From the NCBI GenBank assembly GCA_902517885.1, contig CABYDZ010000001.1:48567-112566 (forward strand): a stretch of 64,000 bases of DNA. Reading direction: 5' to 3'. This stretch comes from an uncultured Pelagibacteraceae bacterium. GTDB lineage: Bacteria > Pseudomonadota > Alphaproteobacteria > Pelagibacterales > AG-422-B15. The position numbers and the translations under genes were made by a program. The notes under the pieces are model-generated. The model saw only the letters and a program-made list of their open reading frames with translations. It had not been told where the DNA came from and ran no database searches. Positions 49,161 to 64,000 of the stretch are shown here, piece by piece. Every line of letters starts with the position of its first letter. Within the stretch, counting starts at the first letter, position 1.

Positions 49161-50867
49161 TCAGTACATAAAATATCTTTGTGCCATTGGCAGTTCTTTA
49201 GCTGGTTCACATGTTATAATTTCTCCATTTGCCCTAACCTCATATGTTTCAGGATTTACATCTATAGTTGGACAAACATCATTTAAAACCATATCTTTTT
49301 TTGAAATTGACCTTGTATTGCTTACCGGCAGCATGCTTTTTTGTATATTGAGATGATTAAGGCTGCCTGCCTCCAGAGAACTCTTGCTGACAAAAGTTAT
49401 CGATGAGCTTTCAAGCGATCTTCCATAACTTCCAAACATTGGGCGGGTATATACAGGTTGGGGAGTTGGAATCGATGCATTTGGATCGCCCATTTGTGCG
49501 CAGGCAATACTCCCACCCATTATTACAATCTCAGGCTTAACACCAAAGAAAGCTGGGTCCCAGATAACGATATCTGCTCTTTTATTTTTTTCGAGACTGC
49601 CAACATAGGAAGAAATTCCATGAGCAATTGACGGATTTATTGTATATTTTGCAAGGTATCGTTTGACTCTTAAATTATCATTATCGCCTTGCTCTTCAGA
49701 CAGTCTTCCTCGTTGGACTTTCATTTTATGTGCTGTTTGCCATGTTCTAATAATAACCTCACCAACACGTCCCATAGCTTGACTGTCAGATGCGATGATT
49801 GAGAAAGCACCCATATCGTGTAATATGTCTTCAGCAGCCATCGTTTCTCTCCGTATTCTACTTTCAGCAAATGCTACGTCTTCAGGTATTGATTTATCAA
49901 GGTGATGGCAAACCATCAGCATATCTAAATGCTCTTCAACAGTGTTAACAGTAAATGGTCGTGTCGGATTAGTTGAAGATGGCAAAACATACGGTTCACC
50001 GCAAATTTTTATTATATCAGGCGCGTGTCCACCACCTGCACCCTCAGTATGAAATGTATGAATGGTTCTTTTATTAATTGCATTTATTGTATTTTCTACA
50101 AAGCCACTTTCATTGAGCGTATCAGTATGTATCATGACCTGAACGTCGAATTTATCAGCAACATTTAAACAATTATCAATTGCACCAGGAGTAGAGCCCC
50201 AGTCCTCATGAAGTTTAAGAGCAGCTGCTCCACCAAGAACTTGTTCCTCTAAACCTGAAGGCAACGAAGAATTTCCTTTGCCTGCATAAGCTAAATTCAT
50301 CGAGAAAGCATCAGATGATTGAAGCATTCTGCCGATGTGCCATGGTCCCGGCGTGCAAGTAGTTGCTAATGTTCCATGTGCAGGTCCAGTACCTCCACCC
50401 AGCATCGTAGTAATGCCAGAATGTAAGGCGTCATCAATTTGCTGAGGACATATGAAATGTATATGACTGTCAAAGCCGCCCGCCGTTACAATTTTACCTT
50501 CACCTGCAATAACCTCAGTACCTGGACCAATTATAATATCCACACCGGGTTGTGTATCAGGGTTACCAGCTTTTCCAATATGGTCAATATTTCCGTTCTT
50601 TAGTCCAATATCTGCTTTATATATCCCGGTGACATCTAGAATCAGAGCATTTGTAATAACTGTGTCTACGGCTCCATCACTTCTTGAAACCTGAGACTGT
50701 CCCATGCCATCGCGAATAACTTTGCCGCCACCAAACTTAACTTCCTCACCATAGATTGTGAGGTCTTTTTCAACCTCTATGAAAAGTTCAGTATCTGCTA
50801 ACCTTACTTTATCCCCTGTTGTGGGGCCATACATAGCTGCATAAGATTGTCTTGGAATTTTTTTCAT
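49161..50867 (-). CDS. ureC: Urease alpha subunit
   Basis: [45 protein letters not shown]. Confidence 0.98.
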
Positions 50868-57759: not shown

Positions 57760-58455
57760 ATGATTGATATAAGTAATTTGAATTTTTACTATGGTTCTTC
57801 TCAGATATTATTTGATGTTTCACTCAAAGCGAAAAATAAAGAAATTACTTGTTTAATGGGTTCAAATGGAGTTGGTAAAACATCTTTATTAAAGTTTTTA
57901 TCAGGAATCTATCCTTCAAAGTCAGGAAATTATCTTTTTGAAGGGGATAATGTAACTAACTTTAGCTCCCACCAACTTGCTAAGAGAGGAGTAGGGTATG
58001 TTCCTCAAGGCCGTTTTATATTTCCATTATTATCTGTCAAAGAGAATTTAGAAACTGGTTTTGCATGTTTAAAACGTGATGAACATTTCATACCTGATGA
58101 AATTTTTGATCTTTTTCCAGTATTGAAACAAATGATAAATAGAAGAGGTGGAGATTTATCAGGAGGTCAACAACAGCAATTAGCAATTGCAAGAGCAATG
58201 ATTTCAAAACCAAAATTACTACTTATGGATGAACCAACCGAAGGAATACAGCCAAACATCATCCAGCAAATTGGAGAAGTCATAAAATATTTAAAAGATG
58301 AGCAGGGAATGACCATACTATTAGTTGAGCAATATTTTGATTTTGCATTTGATTTAGCAGATTATATCTATGTCATGAAAAGAGGAAAAATTATTACTGA
58401 ATCAAAGAAAGAGAGTCTGGATAAATTGTCGTTTAAAAATGAAGTATCAATTTGA
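57760..58455 (+). CDS. urtE: Urea ABC transporter ATPase
   Basis: GSNGVGKT, YVPQGR, LSGGQQQQLAI, DEPTEGIQP, LVEQY. Confidence 0.94.
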   Translation: MIDISNLNFYYGSSQILFDVSLKAKNKEITCLMGSNGVGKTSLLKFLSGIYPSKSGNYLFEGDNVTNFSSHQLAKRGVGYVPQGRFIFPLLSVKENLETGFACLKRDEHFIPDEIFDLFPVLKQMINRRGGDLSGGQQQQLAIARAMISKPKLLLMDEPTEGIQPNIIQQIGEVIKYLKDEQGMTILLVEQYFDFAFDLADYIYVMKRGKIITESKKESLDKLSFKNEVSI

Positions 58456-60486
58456 ATCTCTAGTCAAGCAAAGTAAAAAGGCATTATCGAGAGCGCTTTC
58501 TTCCATAGCATTTAATCGTCCACTTTTACCAGCATGACCACCAACTAAATTCATTTTCATTAATATTGGATTATCTGAAGTACTGTTTTCTCTGAGTTTT
58601 GGAACATATTTTGCCGGTTCATAATACTGAACTTGAGAGTCATATAGACTGGATGTGACCAATACAGCGGGATAATTTGAAGGCTTAATATTGTCGTATG
58701 GCGAATAGCTTTTAATATAATTATATTCATCTTTATTCGCTGGATTACCCCATTCTTTATACTCAAAAGTAGTCAGGGGAATTGTTTCATCTGACATAGT
58801 GGTGACCACATCCACAAAAGGAACTGCTGATATAATACCTTTATATAAATCTGGTTCCATATTAATGATTGCACCCATTAACAGACCGCCGGCACTTCCA
58901 CCCATCGCATATACATTTTTAGCATTGCCATACCCTTGTTTGATTAAAGATTTGGTTGCATCAATAAAATCATAAAATGTATTCTTTTTATTAAAAATTT
59001 TACCATCATCATACCACTGTCGCCCCATTTCAGAACCACCTCGGATATTGGCGACAGCAAAAACGAAACCCCGATTGAGTAGGGGTAAGATGGACGTTCT
59101 AAAAGCTGCATCAATTATAATGCCATAAGAACCATAGCCATAAATAAGGATGGGAGCTTGAGATAAGTCAGTTCCTTTTTTATATACTAGTGATACAGGA
59201 ACTTTTGTATCATCACGGGCGGTAATTTTAAGTCTTTCAACCTCGTATAGATTTTCATCGTAATTGTTTACAGGCTGCTGCCATGCTAATTCACTCTTAC
59301 CTGACTCAATATCCTCTTTGAATATTGAACTAGGTTTCTTTGGACTCGAATACCCATAGTAAAATTCAGTATCAAGGTACTCATTATTGGTCGCTAAATA
59401 ACAAGAAAAGGCAGGGTCACTAAATTCAATATAATTCCTATCGAGTGTTTCTCTGTTAATTTTTACTATCTTGGGCAGACCGTCTTCTCTTATCTCTAAA
59501 TAAAGATATTGAGGAAAAGTGACAAAATCTTCAATTAAAATAGCATCATCATGTTCAACTACAGTTTCCCACTCATTAAAATTATTAATTTGACTGATCG
59601 TGAATTTTAAAATTGAGAAGTTTTTTTTATTTTTTGCATTACTGCTGACATAGAAACACTCTGGTGTGTCTTCAATGGAATAAAGATGTTTATCGGATCG
59701 TTTGAGTACACAAAATGGTTGACTGAGTTCCTCATCTAAATCAAGCAGCCACGTCTCTGAAGACTCAGTTTTACTGGTATAAATATTCAAATATTTCTTT
59801 GTCCGCGATTCATAAATATGAAGATGAAATTCCGGGTCATTTTCCTCATAGATTAAAACATCTTCTTTAGCATCAGTTCCAATTTTGTGTTTAAAAACCT
59901 TATTTTCTATCAAAGTAACAGGATCTTTTTGAGCATAGTAAAATGAAGTATTTTTCTTATCCCAAACAATGCTCCCAGAGCTTCTCTCAACTTTACTGTC
60001 TATAATTTTGCCGGTCGTTAAATTTTTAACTTTTATGTTGTATTCTCGTCGACCCGATAAATCTTCTGCATAAGCAATTAAAAGATTATTTGGTGATGGA
60101 GTTATTGACGTAATATTTATATAATCTAAATTCTCAGCCAGTGCATTTACATCAATAACTAACTCTTTAGTCCCATTGAGCTCTCGATAGTATGTTTTAT
60201 ATTGTTGTTCAGAGTTAATTTCAGAGTAATAGAGATAATCTCCATATTTAATTTTCATTGAAACTTCTTTTGGTGGTATGAAACTAACTAATTCTTCATA
60301 AATTGTTTTTCGGCAATCATTATTTTTTTTAAACCAATCTTCTAAGTACTGATTTTCTTCTTCTAAATAAGAAATAATTTCTGGATTTTTACGAGTATCA
60401 TCTCTGAGCCAATAATAATCATCAACACGATTATCGCCATGTGCAATATGGATTTTAGGAATTTTTTTTGGCTGAGGCGGTTTCAT
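58447..60486 (-). CDS. ptrB: Oligopeptidase B (S9A)
   Basis: HGDNRVDDYYWLRD, YGYGSYG, GGSAGG, DSQVQYYEPAKY, GHAGKSGR. Confidence 0.95.
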   Translation of the reverse strand: MKPPQPKKIPKIHIAHGDNRVDDYYWLRDDTRKNPEIISYLEEENQYLEDWFKKNNDCRKTIYEELVSFIPPKEVSMKIKYGDYLYYSEINSEQQYKTYYRELNGTKELVIDVNALAENLDYINITSITPSPNNLLIAYAEDLSGRREYNIKVKNLTTGKIIDSKVERSSGSIVWDKKNTSFYYAQKDPVTLIENKVFKHKIGTDAKEDVLIYEENDPEFHLHIYESRTKKYLNIYTSKTESSETWLLDLDEELSQPFCVLKRSDKHLYSIEDTPECFYVSSNAKNKKNFSILKFTISQINNFNEWETVVEHDDAILIEDFVTFPQYLYLEIREDGLPKIVKINRETLDRNYIEFSDPAFSCYLATNNEYLDTEFYYGYSSPKKPSSIFKEDIESGKSELAWQQPVNNYDENLYEVERLKITARDDTKVPVSLVYKKGTDLSQAPILIYGYGSYGIIIDAAFRTSILPLLNRGFVFAVANIRGGSEMGRQWYDDGKIFNKKNTFYDFIDATKSLIKQGYGNAKNVYAMGGSAGGLLMGAIINMEPDLYKGIISAVPFVDVVTTMSDETIPLTTFEYKEWGNPANKDEYNYIKSYSPYDNIKPSNYPAVLVTSSLYDSQVQYYEPAKYVPKLRENSTSDNPILMKMNLVGGHAGKSGRLNAMEESALDNAFLLCLTRDSN

Positions 60487-60523
60487 TATTTTCTAATATG
60501 TTACTAGCATTTTTTCAATTTTA

Positions 60524-60567
60524 TGGTGCCCCCAACCTGTACTGACCAGGTATCTACGCATTACCAA
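60524..60567 (-). pseudogene. Displaced 3' half of a tRNA-Thr(GGT) gene (att junction of the integrated element)
   Basis: Minus strand TTGGTAA-TGCGT-AGAT-ACCTG-GTCAGTA-CAGGT-TGGGGGC-A-CCA; tRNA similarity stops at the 5' edge of the anticodon loop and no 5' half is present. Confidence 0.8.
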
Positions 60568-60651
60568 TTGTTTGTGGTTTACTTTCTAGGGTTTTCACGC
60601 TAAGGTCAACTATATGTTTGAGAGGCAAAAAAGGCCAGTAAATATGGCTAT

Positions 60652-60720
60652 TTTACAACATTTTCCTAGTTTTCCATTGTTTCAGACGATTACAAATATT
60701 TGGTGTAAATATGGTGTAAA
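60652..60720. repeat. Putative integrase arm-type binding sites
   Basis: TGGTGTAAA direct repeat at 60701-60709 and 60712-60720 (11-bp period); inverted one-mismatch copy TTTACAACA at 60652-60660. Confidence 0.55.
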
Positions 60721-60817
60721 GTTAGAATTGGTTAAAAATGGCGGGTTTTCTAGACCCGATACGAACCCTCTAAATAGGCCGGGTTTGTACATAGATATGA
60801 TGTTGTCTCTCCACAAT

Positions 60818-60891
60818 GCCTCCATGGTGAAATGGAATCATACGTCCTTGGTAAGGACGAGTTCCCTTGTCAGTAAAGGGTGGAGGCACCA
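60818..60891 (+). tRNA. tRNA-Thr(GGT) or tRNA-like RNA with non-canonical T-arm, overlapping the integrase RBS and start codon
   Basis: GCCTCCA TG GTGA AATGGAA TCAT A CGTCC TTGGTAA GGACG AGTT CCCTT GTCAGTA AAGGG TGGAGGC A CCA; all four stems pair (one G-U in the D-stem) and CCA is encoded. Confidence 0.85.
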
Positions 60892-62114
60892 TGCCTAAAG
60901 AAACACAGAAGTACAAAGCTCAGAAATCCAAGATCACCGCTACGCTGGCAGACAAACTCAAACCACAGAAGAAGTCTCCACGTCCAGGAGACAAAGGACC
61001 TAGATATAACGTTAATCGACTCTGGGATACCGATATTAAGGGCTTTTATCTTGAGTGTGGTACTGGTGGCACCAAGACGTGGTATCTACGCTATTCAAAT
61101 AAATTTCAAAGGAAACAGACCTATAAGATTGGTCGTTATCCAGCAATCACCGTACCGTCAGCCAGGAAGGAGGCTTTAATAAAGCTTGGTGAGGTAGCAC
61201 AGGACATTGATATCCAGAAAGAAAAAAGACAGCAGATATCACAGGGTTCAGTTGCAGAGTTCAGTAAGAAATATCTGAAGATGCTCCCTGATTATAAATC
61301 TAAACACCGAGAGGTTTGGTGTCATGAGAAACGTATTGTTCCATCTATTGGACACTTGAAACTGAAGGAAGTTGATAGGGAAGTCATCATGACAATGATG
61401 AAGAAATATGATCACTTGGGGGCAGACTGGGTGCGGACCAAAGTCATGCTACATAAATTCTTCAAAGAGATGATGTTAAATAAGCGGATTTCATACAATC
61501 CGGTAGCCGATATTCCTACACCTAAAGACAAGAAATATAAGCCACGTACAGTCGTAATGACACCAGAACAGGTACTAAAGGTTAGAGAATTTTTAATTCA
61601 GGAAGTAGAAACACACCCAATACACTGTTATTACCTGGGACTACTTCTAGCAATTGGAGCCAGACCTGGTGAGTTGATCAAAATAACTTGGGATCAAATC
61701 GATCTTAAGAATGCGACGATGGGTAACTTGTCAATTGGGGAAGGTGCTGGAACAAAGACTGGCGATAAAGACATACCCATATCAGATGTTGCATTGAAGT
61801 ATTTCAAGGAACTATACAAACATACTGGTACTTTCAAGTGGTGTTTCCCTGGACTTAATCCCACTAAACACATGTCCTCATACAGAGATTTCTACGACAA
61901 AGTTAGAGCGTATGCTGGCATAGGCAAAGTACAGATGAGAGATTTTAGAAGAACTTTTATCACTGCTGGTGCAAAGTCCTCAGATGATATCCACGCAGTA
62001 TCACAGATTGTGCAACACTCAGATATTAATATCACTGCTAAAGTTTATGATCAGGTAGATGATAAGAGGCAACGTAAAGCGTTGAAGAAGATAAAAGGTG
62101 TGGCCTTACTATGA
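60891..62114 (+). CDS. Tyrosine recombinase/integrase with N-terminal arm-DNA-binding domain
   Basis: LWDTDIKGFYL...KTWYLRY...KIGRYPAITVPSAR arm domain; catalytic GARPGE, TKTG, RDFRR, QHSD...VY; GGAGG 4 nt before ATG 60891. Confidence 0.92.
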   Translation: MPKETQKYKAQKSKITATLADKLKPQKKSPRPGDKGPRYNVNRLWDTDIKGFYLECGTGGTKTWYLRYSNKFQRKQTYKIGRYPAITVPSARKEALIKLGEVAQDIDIQKEKRQQISQGSVAEFSKKYLKMLPDYKSKHREVWCHEKRIVPSIGHLKLKEVDREVIMTMMKKYDHLGADWVRTKVMLHKFFKEMMLNKRISYNPVADIPTPKDKKYKPRTVVMTPEQVLKVREFLIQEVETHPIHCYYLGLLLAIGARPGELIKITWDQIDLKNATMGNLSIGEGAGTKTGDKDIPISDVALKYFKELYKHTGTFKWCFPGLNPTKHMSSYRDFYDKVRAYAGIGKVQMRDFRRTFITAGAKSSDDIHAVSQIVQHSDINITAKVYDQVDDKRQRKALKKIKGVALL

Positions 62115-62278
62115 TCGAACTCATAATGCTTAAGATGTGTTTTGAGAACGGTGAACTAGAGAAGTATATTGAGGAACATACAAACGTTGCCACCGTAATC
62201 TACGCCAGCTATGATGAGGAAGAAAGTACAATTGAGAGCGATAGAAAATGCTACTATATTTCTATCGAACGCTGGTGA
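62111..62278 (+). CDS. Small acidic hypothetical protein (55 aa), not in the ORF track
   Basis: ATGA overlap with the integrase stop; MIELIMLKMCFENGELEKYIEEHTNVATVIYASYDEEESTIESDRKCYYISIERW; ends 4 bp before the next ATG. Confidence 0.5.
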   Translation: MIELIMLKMCFENGELEKYIEEHTNVATVIYASYDEEESTIESDRKCYYISIERW

Positions 62279-62282
62279 AAAT

Positions 62283-63152
62283 ATGAAACGAGTATTAGAC
62301 TTCACCGTTGCAAACATTGGCCACCCAGAGAGTTTTCAAAAAACCTTGCTTGAGCCATTAGCCGTAATGGGTATTGAGTTATCTGAGATTGGTAAACACT
62401 CAGCACAATCAGCTTTTGATCACTTTGTTCATAGGTTTTATGAACTGTATGACATTCACCAATACGACCAATATCCTGAAGCCAAGAAGCTCGATCAGTT
62501 TGACAAGAAGATTGAAAGCTTGTGGAAAGTTGTAGCTGAAGAAAATCGACGAGATCTTGAGGCTATGCAAGAGCTAGAGAAAGCTTTATTGAAAGCTCAG
62601 GACGAGATAAGAAAAATGAAACGTCACCGTGAAGAAAACCCAAAGAGTGATACTGTATATCCTCCAGGTGTAGTTATGCTTTGTCAGCATTTAATACTTT
62701 ACTGGGATGACTGGATGCGGAACTTTATGGTGAAACATAAACCAGGGGCATCAGTTAAAAGTTACTTCTATCAAATTGATAACCAGATGACCTTCGAATT
62801 ACAAAAACATCTTCTTGAAGGCGTGGATGTTAATAGTAATCCTGGCGGAGCATTTATACAGAGAGCATTTTATAATTACTGGGGTATTGATTTTACAACA
62901 GCCCAAATGAAAACCCTGATCCTGAAAGCGTGGGAGAGTAAACCCACCAAAGACGAATTAAATATTAAGCCACACATACCGTTAGATATTTGGTTGAGAC
63001 ACCAGAATTTAAGTATGGATCAAGTGGTAGAGGAAGAAGTAGCTGGTAGTTTTAAGTTGCAGCAGTTTTCAGCATCAAATGAATATATGGCATCACTGCA
63101 AGAGACTATCGATAACCTCCGAAAGTGGAGAGAAGAAAAAAATAAGAAGTAG
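62283..63152 (+). CDS. Hypothetical protein with central coiled coil
   Basis: Long ORF; start at MKRVLDF preferred (the track start at 62211 overlaps the small ORF); no family recognised. Confidence 0.7.
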   Translation: MKRVLDFTVANIGHPESFQKTLLEPLAVMGIELSEIGKHSAQSAFDHFVHRFYELYDIHQYDQYPEAKKLDQFDKKIESLWKVVAEENRRDLEAMQELEKALLKAQDEIRKMKRHREENPKSDTVYPPGVVMLCQHLILYWDDWMRNFMVKHKPGASVKSYFYQIDNQMTFELQKHLLEGVDVNSNPGGAFIQRAFYNYWGIDFTTAQMKTLILKAWESKPTKDELNIKPHIPLDIWLRHQNLSMDQVVEEEVAGSFKLQQFSASNEYMASLQETIDNLRKWREEKNKK

Positions 63153-63239: not shown

Positions 63240-63587
63240 ATGGAAAACAAAACACCAGAACTTGATATTGATGTTTATGCTCTCATCCCTGAGCTACTCG
63301 ACCTAGAACAAATTCATCATTTGTACGGGCTGGCACCAGGTACGATTAGAAGAGAGAGATGGCAACAAAAACTAATTAAAGAACGAAAAATTAAAGCTGA
63401 GGATGTAAAGAAAATTAATACCTCAGGTTTTGGCTTTTTGTATGAACCTGTCCTTATGTACGGGAAACTTTATTACAGACGAAAAGACGTAGAGCATTTC
63501 ATAAAGACCTGCCAAGAAAAATCACCAATGGAACAACTGCGACTTGCATCAATAGCTGGCAGAGCGCGCGAAGGTAAGAGTGTATGA
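63240..63587 (+). CDS. Excisionase/AlpA-like (MerR-fold HTH) DNA-binding protein
   Basis: LLDLEQIHHLYGLAPGTIRRERW helix-turn-helix and GKLYYRRKDVEHFI wing-helix pattern; near an integrase. Confidence 0.6.
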   Translation: MENKTPELDIDVYALIPELLDLEQIHHLYGLAPGTIRRERWQQKLIKERKIKAEDVKKINTSGFGFLYEPVLMYGKLYYRRKDVEHFIKTCQEKSPMEQLRLASIAGRAREGKSV

Positions 63588-64000
63588 TTGATAAAGCTAT
63601 ACGATTAGAGCGGGAACTAAAACGAAGTGGAAAGATTGATAAAAATTTATCTAAAATCTCAACTGATGAATTTCCAGAAAAAGTTTTTCCAAAGATTGAA
63701 CGCGGCCCCGAGGCATATAACGCCAGTCTTATTGATTTAATCGACAACATACGCAGCACTACACCTGGACCAGAGGGTAAACAATTTGTGCTACCTAAAT
63801 ATACAGACGTGCCAACACAGAAAATTAAACATTTTAAACCTCCAACGACCGCAGAGATTTTGAGAATGTTCAATGATAATTTTACCTTAGGTGGCACTAA
63901 CGACTTTGAAGAATTTAAAACAAAACTATTCAATCGAGAATATAACGACCTAGAAATCGACCTTACAGACTACCTCGATTATGTGTTTGATGGTGAGGAA
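63584..64000 (+). CDS. Hypothetical protein, 3'-truncated by window
   Basis: ATGA overlap with previous stop; 139 open codons MIDKAIRLERELKRSG...DYVFDGEE. Confidence 0.7.
   Translation, partial: MIDKAIRLERELKRSGKIDKNLSKISTDEFPEKVFPKIERGPEAYNASLIDLIDNIRSTTPGPEGKQFVLPKYTDVPTQKIKHFKPPTTAEILRMFNDNFTLGGTNDFEEFKTKLFNREYNDLEIDLTDYLDYVFDGEE

Follow-up and report, generated by a model that had tools for sequence, protein, structure and literature searches.

An integrative element at a split tRNA-Thr(GGU) gene of a Pelagibacteraceae bacterium, its own tRNA-Thr(GGU) and an atypical SAR11 T-loop

The stretch of DNA discussed here, referred to as the window, spans 64,000 nucleotides of an uncultured Pelagibacteraceae bacterium (GenBank assembly GCA_902517885.1, contig CABYDZ010000001.1, positions 48,567 to 112,566 of the forward strand). 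A 9,170-bp integrative element, whose left end lies in the window, has very probably split the host gene for tRNA-Thr(GGU) and brought with it a whole replacement gene; both tRNAs very probably belong to a selected SAR11 class, marked by the T-loop GTCAGTA. To an earlier description of this DNA the analysis adds an element attachment site (attP) that destroys its target and is accompanied by a portable, probable replacement gene, a tRNA-integrase module conserved in the element family, and the existence of further atypical classes of the tRNA elbow.

The split host gene and the element within it

The source genome is a draft of 1.28 Mb in 30 contigs, with ∼33% GC, 85% completeness and a permuted transfer-messenger RNA (tmRNA). 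On its contig C1, the host gene and its surroundings are laid out as follows.

60524..60567, minus strand: host tRNA-Thr(GGU), the displaced 3' half from the anticodon loop to CCA, with T-loop GTCAGTA; the intact genes in L013-L018 have the same 3' sequence
60561..60568, no strand: left junction (attL) with the 8-bp crossover core TTACCAAT, complement of the anticodon loop; recurs at C1:118297-118304, the right junction
69731-69767 in window numbering, minus strand, outside the window (G000:C1:118297-118333): 5' half of the host tRNA-Thr(GGU), which pairs with the 3' half
58447..60486, minus strand: host flank, a ptrB-like oligopeptidase gene (679-aa open reading frame, ORF; Pfam Peptidase_S9_N, E 5.9e-76, over the N-terminal 351 aa)

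Read 5' to 3' on the minus strand, 60524-60567 consists of the loop TTGGTAA, a 5-nt stem strand, the variable loop AGAT, the T-arm ACCTG-GTCAGTA-CAGGT, a 7-nt acceptor strand and ACCA. The other half, on the same strand and 9.2 kb away, supplies the complementary acceptor strand, the D-arm, the complementary anticodon-stem strand and again TTGGTAA, the loop in which each half ends. The 8-bp repeat TTACCAAT stands at both junctions, with 9,170 bp between its two copies. When joined, the halves are base for base the intact gene of same-genus genomes (six genomes first fetched; 10 of 46 in a larger sample), and there (L013-L018) ptrB follows the gene directly, just as it follows the fragment in the window. 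In a relative with syntenic flanks, L031, the genes ggt and ptrB bracket an intact tRNA-Thr(GGT).

A covariance model built from five tRNA-Thr sequences, R1, recognizes at the two junctions of the source genome just the broken halves, at 44.6 and 28.5 bits; no rebuilt tRNA was found at either. No other Thr(GGT) gene was found in this 85% complete draft. An earlier note on this DNA, made from the letters alone, had spoken of a displaced fragment and of an element's tRNA, and the 5' half with the second TTACCAAT 9.2 kb downstream bears out both labels. The same note had considered that uninterrupted loci upstream of ptrB might carry a canonical TTCRA T-loop; the orthologues, in the six genomes as in the 10 of 46, carry GTCAGTA.

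As for the insert, its left end comprises the following features.

60569..60817, plus strand: P' arm of the attachment site, with two arm-type repeats GGTGTAAA at 60702-60709 and 60713-60720
60818..60891, plus strand: complete element-borne tRNA-Thr(GGU), a 74-nt cloverleaf with T-loop GTCAGTA and encoded CCA; 96.6 bits with R1
60891..62114, plus strand: tyrosine integrase, 407 aa (Pfam Arm-DNA-bind_3, 2.2e-16, and Phage_integrase, 4.2e-15; PHROG 1 integrase, 2.2e-44)

The insert differs in composition from its flanks (36-42% GC vs 31-32%), and all its genes are on the plus strand: the tRNA, the integrase, nine ORFs of 64-313 aa and a primase protein. Paired GGTGTAAA repeats are located ∼130 bp inside the left end and occur again near the right end. 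The element tRNA has the anticodon GGT, the variable loop AGTT and the T-arm CCCTT-GTCAGTA-AAGGG, in which the 53-61 pair is T-A; its predicted fold reaches -28.7 kcal/mol (z = -3.18), a value that none of 200 shuffles equals. On re-reading, the two tRNA-Thr(GGT) sequences are as the earlier note had described them in their positions, their variable loops and their shared GTCAGTA. Two compensatory pairs do distinguish the T-stems, and there is no relation between the anticodon stems; T54 and A58 are missing from both copies, U55 and C56 are kept, and it is the element copy that also lacks G53-C61.

The tRNA and the integrase gene are fused. The A of the integrase ATG is the last base of the element tRNA (base 76), and the sequence GGAGG is found in the 3' strand of the acceptor stem, 4 nt upstream of that ATG (window 60880-60893). 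The host allele reads GGGGG at the same spot, and the compensated pair 4-69 of the element tRNA thus appears to create the ribosome-binding site of the integrase.

How would such an arrangement come about, and what would keep it? The region is very probably the left junction of an element with a P4-type tyrosine integrase and an AEP primase-helicase, whose attP core TTACCAA(T) has recombined with the host tRNA-Thr(GGU) gene at its anticodon loop of 7 nt. The host gene is left split, and the element's complete tRNA-Thr(GGU), fused to the integrase start, would take over the decoding of ACU and ACC; that the element copy does this decoding we infer from the lack of another Thr(GGT) gene in the draft, from the share of ACT and ACC among Thr codons and from the bases that all copies keep (both given below). 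A self-contained tRNA would let the element use any TTGGTAA host allele despite the diverse stems of SAR11; a fixed 3' fragment, in contrast, should fail to pair properly in the majority of hosts. If the element were lost by any route but precise excision, the cell would be without this tRNA, and retention of the element would be favoured. The tRNA includes the ribosome-binding site and the start codon of the integrase; its folding, or the processing of its 3' end, therefore probably limits integrase translation.

The element family, its attachment site and the explanations weighed

Among 5.8 billion proteins, the integrase has nine relatives at 55-80% identity, and everything else is at or below 28%. 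A scan of metagenomes adds 29 loci, of which 14 are close (52-91% identity) and 15 distant (22-24%). With model R1, a tRNA-Thr(GGT) is found 0-20 nt upstream of the integrase in all 13 close loci that can be scored, the fourteenth (L055) starting inside the integrase gene; in the 15 distant loci no such tRNA was detected. The tRNAs of 11 of the 13 relatives have GTCAGTA with T53-A61, on anticodon stems of three forms, and those of L051 and L057 are Thr(GGT) with the canonical loop TTCGATT and no encoded CCA.

These element tRNAs have been maintained as cloverleaves. In their alignment (13 rows, five of them distinct), 99.0% of the cells are paired and 12 of the 21 pairs show double changes, a level reached by none of 500 shuffles; when the partners are slid, pairing falls to 37-51%. 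The integrase ATG starts on tRNA base 76 in seven of the 14 copies and after a gap of 2 nt in five more; two relatives have a 20-nt spacer with its own ribosome-binding site and still keep the tRNA.

The metagenome contigs also show how the element looks outside a chromosome. In all 11 loci with enough upstream DNA, the right end of the element is joined to its left end through ATAC-TTACCAA-TT, the attP of the free form, and the order is arm repeats, core, arm repeats, tRNA and integrase, with GGTGTAAA pairs flanking the core in most. L049 (9,356 bp) is collinear with the whole element of the source genome and circularly permuted relative to it, and the right-to-left joint is likewise present in L045, L048 and L056. 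Given these joints and the permutation, the contigs represent free forms of the element, circular or concatemeric, in which attP is intact. R1 reports a single tRNA per free-form locus. In these sequences attP holds no fragment of a tRNA and shares just the 7-8-bp core with its target; integration therefore leaves the host gene split.

What, then, is the role of the element's tRNA? One may regard it as ordinary cargo, as in large phages, that serves codons of the element or of its helper, with the split host gene tolerated and tRNA-Thr(UGU) reading all ACN codons. The source genome does contain tRNA-Thr(UGU), the same odd types of tRNA-Thr(GGU) occur in phage tRNA arrays, and the canonical-loop genes of L051 and L057, devoid of CCA, agree with such a view. 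Against it, all 13 scorable members of the family carry exactly the isoacceptor that their attP destroys, each genome examined keeps one Thr(GGT) gene, and ACT and ACC together represent 48% of the Thr codons (734 long ORFs of the source genome), so that simple cargo is unlikely. Or, is the tRNA-like sequence mainly a cis-regulator of the integrase, a processing signal or a decoy, with an acceptor stem that hides GGAGG and the start? The shared base 76, the location of GGAGG in the 3' strand of the acceptor and the overlap in seven of the 14 copies, with a gap of just 2 nt in five more, are what a regulator would show, and tRNA finders reject the sequence. Yet a hairpin would not need the anticodon loop, the threonine identity pairs, G18/G19, A73 and CCA, all of which are conserved, nor four stems that covary, and the tRNA persists in the two relatives whose integrase has a ribosome-binding site of its own. 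A purely regulatory sequence is for these reasons very unlikely; regulatory and decoding roles are, however, not mutually exclusive.

An assembly or binning artefact, or an odd loop that reflects the decay of a dying gene, hardly deserves any credence. It is true that the genome is a 30-contig, 85%-complete draft and that a single integrated copy is known, but one and the same 8-bp core marks the two junctions exactly, and the halves match intact orthologues base for base. Moreover, the flanks are syntenic with L031, and the loop is invariant in 31 tRNA backbones and occurs in complete genomes of cultured strains.

The replacement of a split host gene by a tRNA carried on the element is thus the explanation preferred here, and a number of observations weigh against it. 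The source genome is the sole integrated copy found: none of the 300 other genomes of the order contains an integrase relative at E ≤ 1e-20, and relatives are absent from genome_contigs (single-protein scan) and from IMG/VR (single-protein and alignment scans). A second Thr(GGU) gene could lie in the 15% or so that the draft lacks. The element copy, devoid of G53-C61, T54 and A58, has no Rfam match even at E ≤ 10 (60400-61000); in the window as a whole, ARAGORN calls no tRNA, and neither does Rfam at its gathering score. A scan of 60480-61000 gave no sigma-70-like promoter upstream of the element tRNA. Finally, no capsid, packaging or helper-related gene was recognized among the element ORFs with Pfam, PHROGs, NCBIfam or PADLOC, and the name satellite, as applied to this element, is a putative one taken from its gene layout only.

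The GTCAGTA class and the other alleles at the locus

Few bases in biology are as conserved as T54, U55, C56 and A58 of tRNA, together with G18 and G19. Both the element and the host copies have G54 and G58 instead, and the former also has T53-A61, so that the common feature T54-U55-C56-R57-A58 closed by G53-C61 is not present in them. All 30 other tRNAs of the source genome have TTCRANY T-loops closed by G-C. What the copies do keep is G1-C72, C2-G71, the anticodon loop TTGGTAA, G18/G19, A73 and CCA (the last not encoded in L051 and L057). In E. coli, G1-C72, C2-G71 and the anticodon constitute the threonine identity set.

How widespread is this class? The earlier note had proposed a motif search of the genome and its relatives. 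The motif TTGGTAA-N5-N4/5-N5-GTCAGTA occurs in just two places of the 1.28-Mb genome, the host fragment and the element copy. Of the other genomes of the order, 300 were searched with a 43-nt pattern, and 95 of them have the class; the reversed pattern, as a control, gives no match in 301 genomes. By genus, designated here with codes (g1, that of the window, in family f1; g3 in family f2; and g5, g6 and g7), the class is present in 10 of 46 genomes of g1, one of two of g7 and 84 of 201 of g3, and in none of the 51 genomes of eight other genera. The 84 include G112, an unpublished genome; if it is left out, the count for g3 is 83 of 200.

In a collection of 185,579 species, of which 26 of 64 parts were scanned, there are at least 120 such stretches, for an estimated total of ∼300. 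Among the matches listed, all are titled Pelagibacter or SAR11-like but three: a metagenome-assembled genome (MAG) labelled Rickettsiales, a single-amplified genome labelled Alphaproteobacteria, and a 2.4-kb contig of a Bacteroidota MAG (L091). The tRNA-Thr(GGU) of this last contig is identical to a common Pelagibacter allele, and the contig is probably misbinned. Complete genomes of cultured strains carry the GTCAGTA loop as well.

The loci, at least 120 in number, reduce to 31 distinct sequences, and every one of them has GTCAGTA. An alignment of 39 rows (31 host sequences, four from elements, one of the AGCGTAA class described below, two canonical ones and the broken fragment of the source genome, the source of a few unpaired cells) has 99.3% of its cells paired and double changes in 17 of the 21 pairs. 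None of 500 shuffles does as well, and slid partners lower the pairing to 36-47%. Together with the alignment of the element tRNAs, this covariation backs a cloverleaf with stems of 7, 4, 5 and 5 bp. The earlier note had proposed a selected, atypical class instead of decay. Because intact orthologues equal the joined halves and the loop is invariant over 31 backbones, GTCAGTA indeed appears to define a natural, selected class of SAR11 tRNA-Thr(GGU) and not a decaying gene.

GTCAGTA is one of several alleles at this locus. A second class has the T-loop AGCGTAA (A54, G55 and U58), the D-loop AATAGTA (A18 for G18) and the variable loop AGCC, and shares 47 of its 74 bases with the first. Its loci are the following.

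L028-L034 and L036-L042, at 1501-1574 of each
L195, at 493-566
L198-L205

In genus g1, 31 of 46 genomes belong to the AGCGTAA class and 10 to the GTCAGTA class, and five, whose completeness is 54-90%, have neither. Beyond g1, three of five genomes of g5, five of six of g6 and one of two of g7 have the second class. The already mentioned L031, between ggt and ptrB, belongs to it; its ptrB is 92% identical to that of the source genome, a value within the 90-93% of GTCAGTA-class genomes.

With regard to genus g3, the same two genes flank the tRNA in 101 of 105 loci examined, and this single locus exists in several forms: GTCAGTA, the canonical TTCGATT, TTCAATT and TTCAATC, TTAGATT with a D-loop that lacks GG, and TGCAAGT. 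Base 32 follows the type of T-loop, with ATGGTAA in all 13 genes with a canonical loop and TTGGTAA in 87 of the 88 GTCAGTA genes. Since ATGGTAA mismatches the crossover core of the element family, alleles with A32 may be immune to integration.

Two of the g3 forms are further elbow variants. L211, L213 and L217 (Pelagibacter-type genomes G080, G192 and G147) represent a third type, with the T-loop TTAGATT (A56) and an 8-nt D-loop that has GT in place of GG, which, with a provisional base numbering, suggests a swap of G19:C56 for U19:A56. A fourth variant, L216 (G250), combines the T-loop TGCAAGT (G55) with a 5-nt variable loop and the anticodon loop ATGGTAA.

Is the allele inherited with the clade or exchanged between clades? 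A quick maximum-likelihood tree of the two flanking proteins requires nine changes for the four allele states and seven for GTCAGTA vs the rest, while labels shuffled 1,000 times require 15.4 changes on average and never fewer than 12. The tree has 93 rows, 12 of the 105 loci having been dropped for want of a flank gene or for high-scoring segment pairs below 150 or 180 aa; GTCAGTA loci are oversampled in it, and the flanking genes may recombine. The changes are fewer than in the shuffles and yet several, and the allele therefore appears to be partly bound to the clade and to have been switched repeatedly.

Similar tRNAs are known from outside the order and from phages. One genome from each of 150 other alphaproteobacterial families was searched, and a single match appeared: G308, a genome of 1.6 Mb, in which the AGCGTAA, AATAGTA and AGCC features stand on different stems. 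In IMG/VR, GTCAGTA Thr(GGT) occurs in two contigs, one of them within a 23-tRNA phage array, and AGCGTAA Thr(GGT) in eight, all of them phage tRNA arrays, with seven different sequences and AG in place of GG in the D-loop. TTCRA loops are present in 93 of the 117 tRNAs that ARAGORN calls in these arrays (L197-L205), and the others include A(G/T)CGT(A/T)A loops in tRNAs for Met, Glu, Ala, Phe, Asp, Pro and Ile. The A54/U58 loop thus looks like a recurring feature of phage tRNAs, not limited to Thr. The INPHARED phage records contain no copy of the Pelagibacter GTCAGTA or AGCGTAA allele, and the canonical allele has weak matches only (74-76% identity) to tRNAs of Rhizobium and Pectobacterium phages.

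Two side observations come from the same IMG/VR contigs. L198 and L203 have a tRNA with the anticodon CTA, labelled tRNA-Pyl by ARAGORN, a possible amber suppressor. L196 (25.5 kb), a contig with a viral classification, has close to its end a Pelagibacter-type GTCAGTA tRNA-Thr beside tRNA-Leu(TAG); possible sources are a junction of prophage or host and a fragment of the host.

Could these alleles reflect a conflict over the gene itself? It is possible, though doubtful, that tRNA-Thr(GGU) is a contested locus in SAR11, where satellites that enter the anticodon loop, together with phages that exploit this gene, select for very diverse alleles at a single chromosomal position, and where alleles with an odd elbow are mobile-type tRNAs that have displaced the canonical gene. 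Each of three tertiary pairs of the elbow would then have been swapped in a working elongator tRNA of an organism that ranks among the Earth's most abundant, the types being G54/G58 (GTCAGTA), A54/U58 with A18/G55 (AGCGTAA), and A56 with a D-loop without G19 (TTAGATT). No remnant of the element was found beside 149 host tRNA loci (tblastn with 11 element proteins and a search for paired GGTGTAAA), and a mobile origin of the chromosomal alleles is accordingly no more than hypothetical.

Judged by these counts, one third of the sampled SAR11 species would decode ACU and ACC, which are close to half of the Thr codons they have, with a G54/G58 tRNA, and most of a sister family would use one with A54/U58 and A18/G55. 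SAR11 alleles are in this sense natural and cultivable test cases for the limits of elbow rewiring.

Known systems, detection and the remaining features

In the standard genomic island, attP holds a fragment of the target tRNA and integration restores the gene, as Islander defines it (PMC4383910). With such islands, which have P4-type tyrosine integrases and of which those in the anticodon loop form the 'A' sublocation, the element discussed here shares a tyrosine integrase with an arm-binding domain beside the att site, an attB within a tRNA gene, a crossover in the anticodon loop, arm-type repeats that flank the core and excision to a circle. Its attP, on the other hand, has just 7-8 bp in common with the target; the gene is left split, and a separate whole tRNA gene on the opposite strand would substitute for it. 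The family thus breaks the rule that attP rebuilds the tRNA gene, on which finders such as Islander depend, and islands of this kind escape methods that look for a tRNA gene and its fragment. With regard to imprecise loss, the arrangement would serve as a hostage device; it would also free the element from matching the stems of the host tRNA.

Elements of a similar layout have been reported in Pelagibacter and Prochlorococcus (PMC9618062; 10.1101/2020.12.28.424599). VEIMEs are integrase- and primase-bearing satellites of Pelagibacter, and the word tRNA does not appear in the main text that describes them (PMC9618062); tycheposons target tRNA genes, leave partial tRNAs and restore the gene (10.1101/2020.12.28.424599). 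The present element (∼9 kb) resembles both in its tyrosine integrase and primase-helicase and in its free monomers or concatemers (PMC9618062; 10.1101/2020.12.28.424599). It differs from tycheposons, as the latter are described, in leaving the tRNA gene unrestored (10.1101/2020.12.28.424599). The integrase searches of IMG/VR found no relative that would place it in virions.

As for phages, the likeness lies in the tRNAs: arrays in IMG/VR contain tRNA-Thr(GGU) with GTCAGTA (one array) or with the AGCGTAA loop. There, in contrast, these tRNAs are cargo among 9-23 others, with no paired integrase that destroys the matching host gene. A preprint on pelagiphages describes likely att sites in viral contigs, namely stretches that match tRNA-Thr or tRNA-Asn of SAR11 identically (10.1101/2019.12.14.876532), and SAR11 tRNA-Thr is therefore already known as a target of the ordinary type. 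'Pelagibacter, resolved' gives 30-36 tRNAs per genome by tRNAscan-SE and, in the text available, makes no remark on tRNA-Thr (10.64898/2026.04.03.716430).

Some further points emerge from the literature searched, outside which lie most subscription journals. It yielded no integrase paired with a replacement or compensatory tRNA, nothing on tRNA-Thr in Pelagibacter beyond the attP remark just cited, no atypical SAR11 T-loops, no T-loops with A18/G55 or G54/G58, and no instance of the string GGCRGUA. The GTCAGTA class is apparently undescribed yet common in SAR11.

Another comparison concerns tmRNA, which has G55, lacks an anticodon arm and works with SmpB. The earlier note had likened the loop to that of alphaproteobacterial tmRNAs, and rightly so: the organism's own tmRNA, on contig C2, has the T-loop GGCGGTA (233 bits vs RF01849), and the Rfam consensus for the family alpha_tmRNA is GGCgGUA. 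The alpha_tmRNA match also speaks against Helicobacter or Prochlorococcus, two attributions that the window had suggested at first. The tRNA loop GUCAGUA shares with this consensus G54, C56, purine 57, G58, U59 and A60, and matches the organism's own tmRNA loop at five of seven bases. Unlike tmRNA (RF01849), the tRNA keeps U55, a D-arm with G18/G19 and the GGU anticodon, in a plain 74-nt cloverleaf with neither tag frame nor permuted layout.

Do standard tools see these genes? The answer depends on the class (RF00005 is taken at its gathering cut-off of 29 bits).

Host GTCAGTA class: found by ARAGORN; found by RF00005 at 45.5-59.1 bits (59.1, 46.1 and 45.5)
AGCGTAA class, family f1: missed by ARAGORN in 3/3 loci; found by RF00005 at 50.9 bits
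G308 gene, AGCGTAA type: found by ARAGORN; not listed by RF00005 at the gathering score
Element copy: missed by ARAGORN and by RF00005

The suggestion that standard scanners may miss the class thus holds for the element copy and fails for the host class. Of the eight phage-array contigs with an AGCGTAA Thr gene, three have it called by ARAGORN. Annotation based on ARAGORN would show many such genomes as lacking tRNA-Thr(GGU), and the genes borne by elements escape both ARAGORN and Rfam.

The rest of the element, downstream of the integrase, begins within the window.

62211..63152, plus strand: ORF of 313 aa, without family; conserved in the metagenome relative L049, with tblastx identities up to 87%
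63240..63587, plus strand: ORF of 115 aa, with a weak helix-turn-helix match (Pfam HTH_17, E 0.0034, below the curated cut-off)
63584..64000, plus strand: ORF running off the window; the element extends 5.7 kb further

The 115-aa ORF is a possible excisionase or regulator. Beyond the window follow five more small ORFs, an 809-aa protein with AEP primase and DUF5906 parts (Pfam AEP-TOTE, 3.3e-18, and DUF5906, 1.3e-10; PHROG primase, 9.7e-43), a 199-aa ORF and the P arm. For the nine other ORFs of the element, Pfam, PHROGs, NCBIfam and PADLOC give no family match that passes the threshold.

A last observation lies apart from the element. The Rfam model 5_ureB_sRNA, a Helicobacter family, matches the window at 50429-50714 (plus strand) with 102.8 bits; this gives no evidence for a small RNA here, and the match likely arises from a model that lies antisense to conserved urease coding sequence.

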